DNA of 64,000 nucleotides from Candidatus Omnitrophota bacterium (lineage in GTDB: Bacteria; Omnitrophota; Gorgyraeia; Gygaellales; Profunditerraquicolaceae): contig DAONDX010000007.1 in NCBI GenBank assembly GCA_035402765.1, positions 14,281-78,280 on the forward strand, written 5' to 3'. Below, piece by piece: positions 13,642 through 43,346 of the stretch; positions within the stretch are counted from its first letter, which is position 1; each line of letters opens with the position of its first letter. A model generated the notes under the pieces. That model saw only the letters and a list, made by a program, of their open reading frames with translations, was not told where the DNA came from and did not search any database. Both the position numbers and the translations under genes were made by a program.

Positions 13642-13712
13642 ATCCCCTTGGGGGATTAATTCGCGCATTAACTTACTTACATTTTAAGTTTGTAAGTTAA
13701 GCGCTCATAAAA

Positions 13713-14072
13713 ATGAGAAAAAAAGAAGAGTTAAGACTTAAGAGACATAATCGGATTAAAATGCGGATGACGGGTACTAAAGAGAAGCCGCGTTTGGTTG
13801 TCCACCGTTCCTTAAAGAATATTTCAGCGCAGGTAATGGATGATACCGTGGGCAAGGTTTTATTTTCTCTTTCAACTAATGATAAGGCAACCAGGCAAAA
13901 ATTCAGCAGTGCGGGAAATCTTAAATCCGCTACGCTCTTTGGAGAATTGTTTGCTCAAGTTGCTAAGGAAAAAGGGGTAAATAAGGTAATTTTTGATCGA
14001 GCGGGATACCTTTATCACGGCAGGATTAAATCTTTTGCCGAGGCATTAAGAAAAGGTGGAATGGAGTTTTAA
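13713..14072 (+). CDS. rplR: 50S ribosomal protein L18
   Basis: 119 aa in the L18 position with the [25 protein letters not shown]-terminus. Confidence 0.93.
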
Positions 14073-17078: not shown

Positions 17079-17821
17079 TTTTTCTCAAGTCCCCAAAAGA
17101 CTTGATTATGCTTAAGCGTTCGGGAGCGATTCTGGCATCTGTGATGCAGAAACTACAGGTTCTTCTGCATCCGGGGATGACCACTTTGGAGCTGGATCTT
17201 TTGAGCGAAGAATTGATTCGCAAAGAAAAAGTTCTGCCGGCTTTTAAAGGGTATAACGGTTTCCCGGGAACAGCTTGTATTTCCGTAAACGAAGAAATTG
17301 TCCATGGGATTCCGGGATCCAGAGTGATTTCGGATGGAGATATCGTAAGTATAGATTTAGGGGTAAATTACGAAGGTTTTTTCTCGGACATGGCAGTGAC
17401 CTTACCGGTGGGTAAGGTAGGTGACGATAAGTTAAAGTTAATCGCGGCCACGAAAGAGTCTTTAAACCTCGGGATCAAGCAGGCGCAAGCCGGGAATCAT
17501 CTAACTGATATTTCTCATAGTATCCAGAGTTTTGTTGAGGCGCAGGGTTTTTCGGTGGTACGCCAGTTTGTCGGGCATGGGATCGGACGCGCCTTGCATG
17601 AAGAACCGGAGATCCCTAATTATGGACGCCCGGGTTTTGGTCCGCTTTTAAAAAACGGAATGGTTTTAGCGATCGAACCAATGGTCAATCTTGGCGGTTG
17701 GGAATGTTTGGTTACCGGAAATGGCTGGACCGCCGTAACCAAGGATGGGTCAGTTTCAGCGCATTTTGAGCATACGGTAGCGATTACGGATAACGGCCCG
17801 GTAGTCTTGACAAAGTTATAA
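17075..17821 (+). CDS. map: methionine aminopeptidase type I
   Basis: 248 aa with metal-binding D/H/E motifs. ATGA overlap with adk. Confidence 0.92.
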   Translation: MIFLKSPKDLIMLKRSGAILASVMQKLQVLLHPGMTTLELDLLSEELIRKEKVLPAFKGYNGFPGTACISVNEEIVHGIPGSRVISDGDIVSIDLGVNYEGFFSDMAVTLPVGKVGDDKLKLIAATKESLNLGIKQAQAGNHLTDISHSIQSFVEAQGFSVVRQFVGHGIGRALHEEPEIPNYGRPGFGPLLKNGMVLAIEPMVNLGGWECLVTGNGWTAVTKDGSVSAHFEHTVAITDNGPVVLTKL

Positions 17822-17876
17822 GAGAATTGTTCTTTTACTATAGTTTTATAGCAGAGTATTTATTAACGGAGTTTCC

Positions 17877-17995
17877 GCCTCAGTAACACGTAAAAATTCT
17901 CTGGAATTTTTACGATTCGGCGGAATAAATTCGCAGACGGCCTGGCGGCCTACGACTTATGTCGCTGTCGCTTCCGTAAGTTGTCTGCTCATTTA
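17877..17995 (+). repeat. repeat family B copy 1: ~120-nt structured leader directly 5' of infA
   Basis: Near-identical to 42755..42887. Hairpin ACGTAAAAATTC/GAATTTTTACG(T), GGCC-tggc-GGCC, and a long-range GCAGACG/TGTCTGC stem ending ...CTGCTCATTTA immediately before the ATG. Confidence 0.65.
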
Positions 17996-18214
17996 ATGCC
18001 AAAAGAAGATTTAATCGAAACAGAAGGAAAAATTATTGAAGCTTTACCGAACGCGATGTTTAAGGTTGAGCTTGAAAACGGGCATGTGGTGTTGGCGCAT
18101 GTTTCAGGAAAAATGCGCATGAATTTTATTAGAATAATTCCGGGTGACAAAGTTAAACTAGAACTTTCTCCTTATGATCTTTCCCGGGGGAGAATTACTT
18201 TTCGGGTGAGATAA
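17996..18214 (+). CDS. infA: translation initiation factor IF-1
   Basis: [30 protein letters not shown]..., S1-like. The ATG at 17996 is preferred over the TTG at 17981. Confidence 0.93.
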
Positions 18215-18328: not shown

Positions 18329-18434
18329 ATAACGCCCCGCGCTAAATTGTTTGGCGCGAAGGTTATATTGATGACAAGACACCCAGCGTTAAATATAATT
18401 GCGTTGGTGTTGTCCTCGCGGACAAGGAGTAGAC
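18329..18434 (+). repeat. repeat family A copy 2: structured 5' leader element upstream of rpsM
   Basis: GACAAG-ACACCCAGCG-loop-AATTGCGTTGGTGTTGT-..-GACAAGGAG. Same stem as copy 1 with an A->G change read as A-U to G.U, and a different loop. Confidence 0.6.
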
Positions 18435-18848
18435 ATGCCAAGGATTATCGGTATTGATATACCTAAAGAAAAAAGAATTGAAATAGCTTTGACTTATTTG
18501 TATGGGATAGGGAGAGCCCAATCCAATATCGTATTAAAAGAAGCCGGCATCAGTCCGTCTAAACGGGCTAAGGATTTAAGCGAAGAAGAAGTTTCGCGGA
18601 TCACGCAGATCTTGCAAAAAGAAGGATCTTTGAGGATTGAAGGCGATCTGCGGCGTGATATTTCTCAGAATATCAAGCGTCTTATGGATATTGGTTCTTG
18701 GAGAGGAATGCGCCATAAAAAAGGGCTGCCGGTGAGAGGGCAGCGTACGCGGACAAATGCGCGTACCAGAAAAGGAAAGAAAAGATCAACTCAGGCCCCG
18801 GTGATTAAAAAAGCTGAAGCGCCAAAGGCTAAGGCTCCAGCTAAATAA
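18435..18848 (+). CDS. rpsM: 30S ribosomal protein S13
   Basis: [26 protein letters not shown]. The start at the ATG at 18435 has a GGAG SD. The ORF-track upstream extension is spurious. Confidence 0.95.
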
Positions 18849-41132: not shown

Positions 41133-42194
41133 ATGAACTCTCGCCTAAAGAGCATATATTCCCAATTAAAACAGAGAGGCTTAGACGGCCTCTTGGTTAG
41201 CTTACCGGCTAACGTTTCTTATTTGACTGAATCTTTAAGCCGCGATGCCTATCTTTTAGTTTCCGCAAAAGAAAATATCTATTTTACCGATTCCCGTTAC
41301 ACCGAAGAAGCCAAAGCTTTTTTAAAAGATAATGCTTTGCTTAAAGAATGTAACGGCGGGGTGTTTAAGCATATCGCTGAAACCGCTCTTGATTTGGGGC
41401 TTAAAACAATAGGTTTTGAAGAAAGATACCTGCCGTTTGCGGAATTTACTAAAGTTAAGGAATATTCAAGGGGAAAGTTCGGTTTGGTGCCGACGCACAG
41501 TATAATCGAAGATAAAAGGCAGGTAAAAGATGCTCAGGAAATCGCTAAACTTAAGCAAGCTGCCCGGATTACTGTGATGGCTTTAGATCATATTAAGAAG
41601 TTTCTTGCCCCCGGCGTTAAAGAAATCGAAATAGTGGCTGAACTTGAGCGTTTTATGAGGTATCACGGCAGCCAAGGGCCGGCTTTTGATATAATTGTGG
41701 CTGCGGGGGCTAATTCCAGCCAGCCGCATCATCTTTCCGGGACACGGAAACTGAAAGATAATGAACCGGTCCTTATTGATTTAGGGGTTAACTACCAAGG
41801 ATATAAATCTGACTTGACAAGGGTTTTGTTTTTGGGTAAAATAAATATTCTTGTCCGTAAGGTTTACGACATTGTTCTTCGTGCCCAGGAATTGGCGATC
41901 AAAATGATCCGGCCTGGCGCTGAAATGGCTGAAATTGATAGGGTTGCGCGGGAATACATTGCCAGCCAAGGTTATGGCGCATGTTTTACGCATAATCTGG
42001 GCCATGGTTTCGGCTTAGAGATACATGAAGCTCCGCATATCAGCGGCCGGGAAGCCAGCGCGCTTAAGCCGGGTATGACTTTTACGGTGGAACCGGGGAT
42101 ATACCTTCCGGGCAAATTTGGTATCAGAATCGAGGATATGGTTTTAATAACAACTAAAAGCTGTGAGGTGATCAGTGGCGCTAGGCATAAATGA
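41133..42194 (+). CDS. pepP: Xaa-Pro aminopeptidase (M24B family)
   Basis: 353 aa with the creatinase-like N-domain and M24 metal ligands (DLG..D, HNLGHGFGLEIHE, E..E). Confidence 0.85.
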   Translation: MNSRLKSIYSQLKQRGLDGLLVSLPANVSYLTESLSRDAYLLVSAKENIYFTDSRYTEEAKAFLKDNALLKECNGGVFKHIAETALDLGLKTIGFEERYLPFAEFTKVKEYSRGKFGLVPTHSIIEDKRQVKDAQEIAKLKQAARITVMALDHIKKFLAPGVKEIEIVAELERFMRYHGSQGPAFDIIVAAGANSSQPHHLSGTRKLKDNEPVLIDLGVNYQGYKSDLTRVLFLGKINILVRKVYDIVLRAQELAIKMIRPGAEMAEIDRVAREYIASQGYGACFTHNLGHGFGLEIHEAPHISGREASALKPGMTFTVEPGIYLPGKFGIRIEDMVLITTKSCEVISGARHK

Positions 42195-42741
42195 AATCAA
42201 ATCAGGAGTAACAATTTTAGTTGAAGGTGAAGTTTATATGTGTATTGATGCTCAGCATGTAAAGCCGGGCAAGGGAGCGGCTTTTGTGCGGGCCAGGCTG
42301 CGTAATTTAAGGAATGATAATATTCAGGAAAAGACTTTTCGCGGCGAAGAGAAGATCGATGAGGCTTATATCGAGGAACGCAAGCTGCAATATCAGTATG
42401 CCAGCGCTGGAATGTTTCATTTTATGGATACGGAAAATTTCGAGGAAATCGCTATATCGGAAAAAATTATCGCCGATAAAGCTAAACTCTTAAAAGATAA
42501 TCTGGAAATTACGGGTTATTTTTATAAAGGCGAAACGCTATTTGTTAATCTGCCAAATTTTATCGAATTCACCATTGTGGAAACCGAACCCGGGTTTAAA
42601 GGTGATTCATCAAAAAGCGGGAATAAGCCGGCTACTGTGGATACCGGAGCAGTGATTCCGGTTCCCCTGTTTATTAATGTGGGGGACAAGATCAAAGTAG
42701 ATACGCGTACCGGCGGCACTTATGTTGAGAGGATCAACTAA
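42175..42741 (+). CDS. efp: elongation factor P
   Basis: 188 aa; KPGKGAAFVRARLRNL loop. The aroQ-pepP-efp-accBC order is conserved. Confidence 0.9.
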   Translation: MALGINEIKSGVTILVEGEVYMCIDAQHVKPGKGAAFVRARLRNLRNDNIQEKTFRGEEKIDEAYIEERKLQYQYASAGMFHFMDTENFEEIAISEKIIADKAKLLKDNLEITGYFYKGETLFVNLPNFIEFTIVETEPGFKGDSSKSGNKPATVDTGAVIPVPLFINVGDKIKVDTRTGGTYVERIN

Positions 42742-42754
42742 GCAGGTAAACTTT

Positions 42755-42887
42755 GCCTCAGAAGCACGCAAAAATTCTTTAGAATTTTTGCGATTCGGCG
42801 AAGTAAATTCGCAGACGGCCTGGCGGCCTATGACTCACCTGGGCTATCGGCACTGTAAGTCGTCTGCTCATTTAAAGGAGTTTTTAA
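42755..42887 (+). repeat. repeat family B copy 2: ~130-nt structured leader directly 5' of accB
   Basis: Same architecture as copy 1. Hairpin CGCAAAAATTC/GAATTTTTGCG (U-A to C-G covariation), GCAGACG/CGTCTGC stem (G.U to G-C), then AAGGAG SD and ATG. Confidence 0.65.
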
Positions 42888-43346
42888 ATGAACATTAAAG
42901 AAATTAAAGAAATGATTAATTTGATGAACGAAAATGGTTTGGCTGAGCTGGAGGTAGAGAAGGATGATATGCGTATCCGCCTCAAGAAAACCGCTACCGG
43001 TTTTGAAGGGACGCAGGCTCCGATAATTTACTCAGCCCAAGCTCCCGCCGCCGGGGCAGCTAATCTGCAGAGCGCGGGCCAGCCTGAAGAGAAGATTGTA
43101 ATTAAAACGGTGGAGATTAAATCTCCCATGGTGGGAACTTTTTACCGCGCGCCAAATCCCGAAGCCCCGCCGTATGTTGAGATCGGCCAGGTAATTGAGC
43201 CAGGCCAGGTAATTTGTATTATTGAAGCGATGAAGTTGATGAATGAAATAAAATCCGAGATCAAAGGAAAAATTCTGGAAATTTTAGTTGATAATGCTGA
43301 ACCGGTAGAGTTCGGTCAATCGCTTTTTCTTATTGACCCGCTTTAA
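42888..43346 (+). CDS. accB: biotin carboxyl carrier protein of acetyl-CoA carboxylase
   Basis: 152 aa with the EAMKLMNEI biotinyl-lysine motif. Confidence 0.92.
   Translation: MNIKEIKEMINLMNENGLAELEVEKDDMRIRLKKTATGFEGTQAPIIYSAQAPAAGAANLQSAGQPEEKIVIKTVEIKSPMVGTFYRAPNPEAPPYVEIGQVIEPGQVICIIEAMKLMNEIKSEIKGKILEILVDNAEPVEFGQSLFLIDPL

Follow-up and report, generated by a model that had tools for sequence, protein, structure and literature searches.

The spacer between efp and accB in the 64,000-nt stretch of Candidatus Omnitrophota DNA analysed here (hereafter the window) contains one copy of what is apparently an undescribed, phylum-wide structured repeat with unusual positional rules. The explanation favoured here, which we consider to have about an even chance of being right, is that the element is a dispersed intercistronic hairpin resembling the REP/BIME repeats, which is gained and lost spacer by spacer and would be co-transcribed with its neighbours and act in cis as a generic punctuation of the mRNA.

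Three copies of a structured element in the window

The efp-accB spacer (42742–42887) is 146 nt long. In a BLAST search of this spacer against the window one other match was found, running from 17877 to the infA ATG at 17996 (83.5% identity over 121 nt, E=1.3e-31), and folding against shuffled sequences gave z values of −5.8 and −4.2 for the accB and infA copies, respectively, with none of 200 shuffles folding as well. This confirmed the conserved structured element of 133 nt before accB, and its companion at infA, that had been noticed in the preliminary description; the AAGGAG and accB ATG reported to follow the element were also found in place (Table 1). A degenerate pattern derived from the core of the family (see below) matched the accB and infA sites only, with 0.00 matches expected, and the covariance model of the family, R1, identified exactly three copies in the 64-kb window. 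The third copy, in the rplF-rplR spacer, had been missed in the preliminary description and is shorter and more divergent than the accB and infA copies. It comprises a simple hairpin, ATCCCC-TT-GGGGGAT, right after the rplF stop codon and then a short-form L hairpin (13656–13709), ends 4 nt short of the rplR ATG at 13713 and fills the spacer.

In the accB and infA copies, a two-tier hairpin (the U module) precedes a long form of the L hairpin. The inner stem of the U module of the accB copy differs from that of the infA copy by a compensatory change from C-G to U-A. The inserted hairpin of the accB L takes the place of the 1–3 nt bulge of the short form, giving a three-way junction. At infA, pairing in L extends as far as the A of the ATG (17996–17998) and there is no Shine-Dalgarno (SD) sequence. 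An ORF of 58 aa that crosses the accB element (42722–42898, + strand) is called as a gene in public assemblies; it has no Pfam match and is almost certainly spurious, a product of the repeat.

Other RNA features of the window are a cobalamin riboswitch aptamer (RF00174, 34558–34738, + strand, 79.9 bits, E=4.6e-18), a tRNA gene (RF00005, 50182–50252, + strand, 66.3 bits) and the rpmJ-rpsM spacer (18329–18435, about 105 nt), in which inverted repeats are visible and which precedes rpsM-rpsK-rpsD-rpoA. The latter gave no Rfam match at gathering thresholds and could be a candidate S4-type autoregulatory leader.

Table 1. Coordinates in the window of the efp-accB region and of the three copies of the element.
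Feature	Position	Strand	Sequence or boundary	Basis
efp CDS (upstream neighbour)	42175–42741	+	stop TAA 42739–42741	ORF list; Pfam EFP_N/EFP/Elong-fact-P_C on identical protein
U module, accB copy (two-tier hairpin)	42751–42803	+		folds; many other genomes have this module type ahead of L
U outer stem, accB copy	42751–42757 / 42797–42803	+	CTTTGCC / GGCGAAG	
U inner hairpin, accB copy	42767–42792	+	CGCAAAAATTC-TTTA-GAATTTTTGCG	
L hairpin (long form), accB copy	42804–42874	+		R1 match 42802–42876, 26.2 bits, E=8.5e-5
L stems, accB copy		+	TAAAT/ATTTA basal helix; GCAGA/TCTGC; inserted hairpin; TGACTCAC/GTAAGTCG	
L internal loop, accB copy	42809–10 / 42868–69	+	TC/TC	
L variable apex, accB copy	42839–42854	+		
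Inserted hairpin, accB L	42817–42828	+	GGCC-TGGC-GGCC	alignment of family
accB Shine-Dalgarno sequence	42875–42880	+	AAGGAG, directly 3' of last paired L base	sequence
Alternative local hairpin, accB copy (predicted)	42868–42891	+	TCATTTAAAG with TTTTAAATGA	MFE folds
accB CDS (biotin carboxyl carrier protein)	42888–43346	+		ORF list; Pfam Biotin_lipoyl
accC start (downstream of accB)	43357			
U module, infA copy	17873–17925	+	outer stem TTCCGCC/GGCGGAA; inner hairpin 17889–17914	alignment, folds
L hairpin (long form), infA copy	17926–17996	+		R1 match 17924–17997, 30 bits, E=5.7e-6
Third copy, rplF-rplR spacer	13642–13712	+		nhmmer; R1 match 13654–13713, 64.8 bits, E about 1e-16

A phylum-wide family with covarying stems

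The starting core was obtained by comparing the window copies with L007, a locus of a relative that has an identical InfA and a shorter version of the element upstream of infA, and with the rplR copy. A degenerate pattern built on this core was scanned over one genome per species (L-numbers designate the matched loci of other genomes) and matched at least 119 stretches, nearly all from Candidatus Omnitrophota metagenome-assembled genomes (MAGs; more than 100). A few matches in MAGs labelled Planctomycetales, Nitrospirota or “bacterium” were true copies, and about four matches were due to chance. In about 0.79 Mb of fetched loci, which constitute an element-enriched sample, model R1 found at least 199 distinct copies. 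All copies inspected were intergenic. No pattern match was found in viral contigs. Rfam (Rfam 15) showed nothing on the element at gathering thresholds, and when 300-nt stretches surrounding the accB and infA copies were searched with E values up to 10 there was again no match to it. No description of the hairpin family was found in the literature searched.

The L core is a hairpin of 55–80 nt. It starts with an AU basal helix of 4–6 bp followed by a 2x2 UC/UC internal loop; further in are a GCNCA/UGNGC helix, a 5' bulge of 1–3 nt or an inserted hairpin, a NNACUUAC/GUAAGUNN helix and a variable apex, in which the theme of a UC/UC loop plus a short helix is often repeated. The pattern-derived set was ascertained for AATTCGC, GTAAGT and GCTCAT, so that the invariance of these blocks is partly circular. 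The basal closing pair, which is outside the search pattern, covaries (UA 57, AU 33, CG 14), as do the variable pair of the GCNCA/UGNGC helix (GC 40, AU 20, CG 13) and those of the NNACUUAC/GUAAGUNN helix (UA 52 and CG 20; AU 60 and GC 16). Overall, 95.9% of L cells were paired as compared with 88.7% in shuffles and 19–40% when the partners were slid, and cells with changes on both sides numbered 105 as against 25 in shuffles. The inserted hairpins of long forms elsewhere (GGC/GCC, GC/GC, GCCCCGC/GCGGGGC, GTCCCGC/GCGGGAC) vary in length and sequence with pairing kept. Features that are unpaired, namely the UC/UC loops, the 5' bulge and a GGG before the hairpin, are also kept across more than 100 species.

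Almost always, a further hairpin of 15–55 nt with a 3' strand ending in GGG(A/G)U(U/A) directly abuts L on its upstream side, being either a simple GC hairpin, as in the rplR copy, or a two-tier U module, as in the accB and infA copies, with a conserved inner hairpin AAAUUCU...GAAUUU. Many of the additional R1 copies run opposite to a nearby L and are found beside the stop codon of the gene upstream. This second subtype, T, has the consensus UAAGU-GA-GGNC...GNCC-GA-ACUUA in mRNA sense, its basal helix including that gene's stop codon, TAA or TGA. In the same sense, the feet of the two subtypes read N-A-A-U-UC...UC-A-U-U-N' for L and AAGU-GA...GA-ACUU for T.

In the model-fitted alignments, G.U and A.C mismatches were equally frequent in L-class stems (20 versus 20 in 2009 cells, each about 1%). 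Other mismatches were as frequent as G.U. That G.U is no commoner than A.C is atypical for RNA under structural selection and fits the maintenance of a DNA palindrome. An excess of G.U over A.C seen on a MAFFT alignment was rejected as evidence for the transcribed strand, as it had arisen from long forms being misaligned and from the 3' part of the pattern being fixed.

Position and polarity relative to genes

The orientation of the element follows that of the neighbouring genes. Among the 122 pattern matches listed, 91 had an ORF on the same strand starting no more than 40 nt downstream, versus 12 in the opposite direction. L ends 0–7 nt before the ATG or directly before an SD, and the L-to-ATG distances were bimodal, with about half of the starts 2–7 nt after GCUCAU, leaving no room for an SD, and the others having an SD and the ATG at 10–24 nt. 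Where starts without an SD could be judged they appear real, since the N-termini of infA, rplR and accC are canonical. Of 101 start-side copies, 90 lay behind a gene of the same direction, whose stop codon was a median of 88 nt away. The subtypes were distributed accordingly: the end was TCATT (L-type) and the stem of the GC type in 107 of 113 start-side copies; of 28 stop-side copies, 19 had a TCACTT (T-type) end, a GG/AG-type stem and a helix enclosing the stop codon. Entire spacers are filled by composites in which T and L flank a central hairpin, for example between accB and accC in L102 (1107–1261); further composites around a central GC hairpin were seen in L062 (556–755), L104 (2334–2467) and L116 (3073–6434), the last of which has four in 8 kb. 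Tandem arrays of two or three units occur at about ten loci, such as L044 (6135–6450), L018 (4532–4775), L029 (6604–6821) and L124 (3743–3950), where the upstream hairpin plus L is repeated with periods of 92–157 nt.

The genes downstream of L are diverse, with 146 Pfam families represented among 90 sampled proteins. Those recurring across species included rplS (three times), rplR, accC, asd, lptF/G, ACP and dihydroorotase. One copy directly followed a tRNA and another directly preceded one. At about eight loci (L011, L057, L075, L059, L085, L103, L125 and L099) a good sigma-70-like promoter, such as TTGACA-17-TAAAAT in L057, starts 3–10 nt downstream of L, which places these copies outside the downstream mRNA, so that they are not its leader. 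In L067 (4259–4340), the region downstream of L contains a 4-codon mini-ORF (ATG GAA GAA GGT TAA), a canonical terminator CCCGAAG...CTTCGGG TTTTTT and the SD and ATG belonging to the next gene, in this order, a layout that is attenuator-like.

By a crude count over the fetched loci and the window, an SD-like tetramer at −18 to −4 was present at about 33% of 201 unambiguous ATG starts versus 13% in a control inside ORFs, which suggests mostly SD-independent initiation in Omnitrophota. Genes preceded by L had an SD in 42 of 91 cases, at least as often as genome starts generally. The idea that L substitutes for the SD, its fold bringing the GGG near the AUG, was rejected, as the GGG is equally conserved in the SD and SD-less classes and SD use is low genome-wide.

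Turnover of sites between relatives

Comparison of orthologous spacers showed that individual sites come and go. Between map and infA, the element is present in the species of the window and in L007 (short form), and absent from L002 (identical InfA, 17-nt spacer), L030 (InfA 96% identical), L018 and L084. Among the efp-accB loci compared, only the species of the window has it; it is absent from L023, L055, L066 and L102. The efp-accB spacer is indeed short in relatives, as the preliminary description had supposed for many genomes, measuring 6 nt in L055 and about 20 in L023. Conversely, the accB-accC spacer contains the element in L055 and L102 and lacks it in the window. The rplF-rplR copy is shared by the window, L030 and L018, whose L18 protein is only 62% identical, is absent from L084, and shows a compensatory change from U-A to C-G between orthologous copies.

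Copies within a genome are not near-identical. The three copies of the window have diverged from each other, and L116 has eight diverged copies of several types in 8 kb, with pairing kept. Similarity can be higher between genomes at non-orthologous positions: the infA copy shares 93.6% identity with a copy upstream of rplS in another genome (L015), versus 83.5% with its own accB copy. L015, L024 and L071 had also been considered as accB orthologues and were rejected, their downstream genes being rplS.

A different repeated hairpin, CCCGTTAGAA...TTCTAACGGG, is found in the efp-accB spacer of L102 (1716–1900, − strand) and L066 (4694–4757). In both, a further TTCTAACGGG lies between the SD and the accB ATG, making an alternative pairing possible, and this hairpin could be a true accB-specific leader.

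A predicted alternative pairing at the accB start codon

One feature sets the accB copy of the window apart. The 3' strand of the L basal helix, UCAUUUAAAG (42868–42877), can pair instead with UUUUAAAUGA (42882–42891), giving a predicted local hairpin in which the AUG is hidden and the SD lies in the loop, and which competes with the basal helix. The predicted MFE fold of −31.2 kcal/mol, versus −27.1 kcal/mol with the basal helix forced, makes this alternative about 4 kcal/mol more stable. Start-codon pairing of this kind occurred in one of 46 SD-class family members, namely the accB copy itself, so that pairing of CAU in the L tail with the AUG of the start codon was rejected as a general feature. 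No orthologous copy exists for comparison, and the same-species contigs are identical. On the folding predictions, the copy may additionally dampen initiation at accB; the alternative hairpin may be a local adaptation or may have arisen by chance.

Comparison with known systems

The closest likeness is to the REP, BIME and REPIN repeats. The Omnitrophota family similarly consists of short imperfect palindromes present in many extragenic, mostly intercistronic copies (three in 64 kb; at least 199 in 0.79 Mb of enriched loci), with two subtypes inverted around a linker like the Y and Z units of BIMEs, with gain and loss between relatives and with tandem clusters. REPs are reported to have effects on mRNA stability and on the translation of the upstream gene, which are brought to mind by the Omnitrophota copies lying within a few nt of stop codons. 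The differences are also clear. The element is longer (55–80 nt plus an upstream hairpin of 15–55 nt), its core is common to the whole phylum, its copies within a genome have diverged with compensatory changes instead of being near-identical, and its orientation is strict, with L flush against the SD or AUG and T containing the stop codon. The arms of a doublet, which would be near-identical in a REPIN, belong here to different subtypes, T and L, and differ at the variable positions. A weak test for RAYT/Y1 genes, by tblastn with E. coli RayT and IS200 TnpA sequences, gave nothing better than E=0.27 in 0.86 Mb, a small part of each genome. The element also has no GTAG or CGTC foot, the conserved tetranucleotide that is given as the defining feature of REPs (PMC3733652).

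Several other systems resemble the L hairpin in part. The RNase III processing hairpins of phage T7 early mRNA (R0.3, R1.1 and others) are likewise long, irregular, intercistronic and interrupted by internal loops, and lie immediately upstream of the next ribosome-binding site; with about 19 bp, internal loops and a position between cistrons, L would be compatible with the geometry of an RNase III substrate. Unlike the T7 hairpins, the Omnitrophota family is chromosomal and phylum-wide, has hundreds of copies and an inverted partner on the stop side, and includes copies outside the downstream transcript. Stabilizing 5' stem-loops, known from the E. coli ompA 5' UTR and the B. subtilis aprE and ermC leaders, share with L a stable hairpin 5' of the coding region that leaves the ribosome-binding site single-stranded; these stabilizers are single-gene elements at the 5' end of a transcript, whereas L is mostly internal to co-directional gene pairs (90 of 101). 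In integron attC sites a basal helix leads through an unpaired central spacer to a helix that contains extrahelical bases and is topped by a terminal structure of variable form, structure being conserved more than sequence. This architecture is similar to that of L, and attC sites also separate the stop codon of one ORF from the start codon of the following one. However, the Omnitrophota element is flanked by core syntenic housekeeping genes (the ribosomal protein operon, efp-accBC) and not by cassettes, and an attC reading was rejected, the consensus having no RYYYAAC/GTTRRRY boxes and the neighbourhood no integrase. A MITE reading was likewise rejected, the flanks of L being inverted (with a covarying closing pair) and not repeated directly, and no target-site duplication being found at the T-L composites or the window copies.

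Evaluation of possible functions

In the preliminary description the accB element had been taken, if regulatory, to place accBC under common control with infA. A riboswitch or protein-binding leader specific to these genes would account for two similar structured copies immediately upstream of infA and accB, and could make use of the predicted AUG-hiding hairpin. This proposal is contradicted by the distribution of the family and retains almost no credence: a third window copy lies upstream of rplR, the downstream genes do not form a coherent set and include neighbours such as tRNAs and promoters, the element is absent at infA in four of the loci compared and at efp-accB in four others instead of being kept at orthologous positions, no Rfam family matches it, and the AUG-hiding hairpin is unique to the accB copy. 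As the family stands next to many unrelated genes, any trans-acting reader would touch a large and functionally unrelated gene set. It is also very unlikely that a transcription signal, whether an intrinsic terminator or an internal promoter, occupies the efp-accB spacer. Just before the element there is indeed a weak promoter-like sequence (TTGAGA-16-TAAACT, 42725–42752), and some upstream hairpins in other genomes contain TTGACA, but promoter-like and terminator-like counts equalled the shuffle expectation, no hairpin is followed by a U-tract (L being succeeded by UAAA or an SD), the canonical terminators with a GC hairpin and U-run that these genomes have at other places look different, and transcription has to pass through any copy within the ribosomal protein operon, as at rplF-rplR. 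No intrinsic terminator-like sites were found in 42500–43000 or in 17700–18100. An ECF-sigma-like −35/−10 reading of AAC...CGTAA in the hairpin was rejected, the spacing of 18–19 nt varying with apex insertions.

The remaining alternatives differ as to whether the element acts as DNA or as RNA. It would be a purely DNA-level palindromic repeat, selfish or chromosome-structural, if it resembled REP/REPIN sequences with their tyrosine transposase or protein-binding palindromes, its position at gene borders then reflecting streamlined genomes in which the element fills the whole spacer. Symmetric Watson-Crick pairing with G.U (G.T in DNA) equal to A.C, BIME/REPIN-like T/L doublets inverted around a central hairpin, tandem arrays, occurrence of the same subfamily at non-orthologous loci of different genomes, presence/absence polymorphism, spacers filled from stop to start and copies outside the downstream transcription unit all agree with this. 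Nevertheless we hold it to be unlikely, since whether a copy is L or T depends on its lying at a start or at a stop, and so on the direction of transcription, a dependence that is needless for a strand-neutral DNA element, the T and L of one doublet are not copies of each other, no near-identical population exists within a genome, and neither a GTAG/CGTC foot nor a target-site duplication was seen; the lack of a Y1-transposase-like gene in the 0.86 Mb of element-rich loci counts for less, the test being a weak one. The opposite possibility is a dedicated host RNA signal that does not spread. Here L, with its two UC/UC loops and its bulge, would be recognized by a factor peculiar to the phylum, be it a nuclease of the RNase III type, some other RNA-binding protein or the ribosome. 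This factor would either process operon transcripts where one cistron meets the next or let ribosomes dock for initiation independent of an SD, and T would act likewise at stop codons. In its favour are the unpaired features conserved in more than 100 species, the strict correspondence of polarity and subtype with start and stop sides, the abutment of about half of the start-side copies on an SD-less AUG (including infA, rplR and accC with canonical N-termini), the pairing kept in diverged copies of one genome (L116) and the retention of the rplF-rplR site between distant L18 proteins. Set against these are the low use of SD sequences generally, with L genes no poorer in them, so that L is not visibly an SD replacement, and also the copies before promoters and beside tRNAs, the rapid turnover of sites between close relatives, the intolerance of wobble pairs and the failure to identify a candidate protein; we therefore rate a dedicated signal as a real but minor possibility. 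In its most developed form, which we put forward tentatively and do not expect to hold, this would be a punctuation of RNA specific to Omnitrophota, with L defining the 5' ends of cistrons and permitting SD-independent initiation at its base and T embedding the stop, for which no counterpart has been described in other bacteria.

In the preferred reading the element is a dispersed hairpin that punctuates mRNA, peculiar to Omnitrophota and comparable there to REP/BIME repeats in its abundance, modularity, gain and loss. Its unit is a GC-rich hairpin ending in GGG(A/G)UU, simple or of the two-tier U type, followed by L, whose UCAU end always faces the gene downstream and stops right at the SD or AUG; T is the sister type, inverted on the stop-codon side and supplying the stop codon. 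We infer that the unit is co-transcribed with efp-accBC, folds as RNA in vivo and works in cis, a very stable stem-loop thus marking the 5' edge of the accB cistron. Such a hairpin could insulate the accB ribosome-binding site from upstream folding and upstream ribosomes, and could also protect segments of RNA from exonucleases or serve as a processing site, with possible effects on mRNA stability and translation. Over evolutionary time copies arise and vanish at different spacers, presumably by the spread of a repeat. Judged from sequence, a role in RNA is suggested by the strict polarity, the specialization of L and T for their sides, the flush placement against SD or AUG, the conserved unpaired features and the long retention of a site in place with a compensatory change, while the parity of G.U and A.C, the doublets and arrays, the subfamily at non-orthologous loci and the copies before promoters speak rather for the DNA level. 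Further points run counter to the preferred reading: a stable hairpin 0–7 nt before an SD-less AUG would normally be expected to hinder binding of the 30S subunit, and the REP-defining GTAG foot, a RAYT gene and near-identical copies within a genome were not found in the loci searched.

Implications

At the level of the locus, a tempting but wrong inference is removed, there being no dedicated regulatory link between fatty-acid synthesis (accBC) and translation initiation (infA). More widely, a conserved structured repeat is shared by a phylum of ultra-small bacteria that is uncultured; its two subtypes, each with its own orientation, lie flush against start and stop codons, and SD-less essential genes are among those abutted. 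As a marker of the phylum and an aid to annotation, a covariance model of the family would be of use, gene callers at present placing the 58-aa ORF over the element. If the element acts on DNA, it would represent a REP-like system outside Proteobacteria whose positional rules are unusual; if on RNA, it would offer a handle on operon organization and on translation starting beside a stable hairpin, and should punctuation by L and T prove true, it would amount to a structured “grammar” for operon expression in ultra-small cells.
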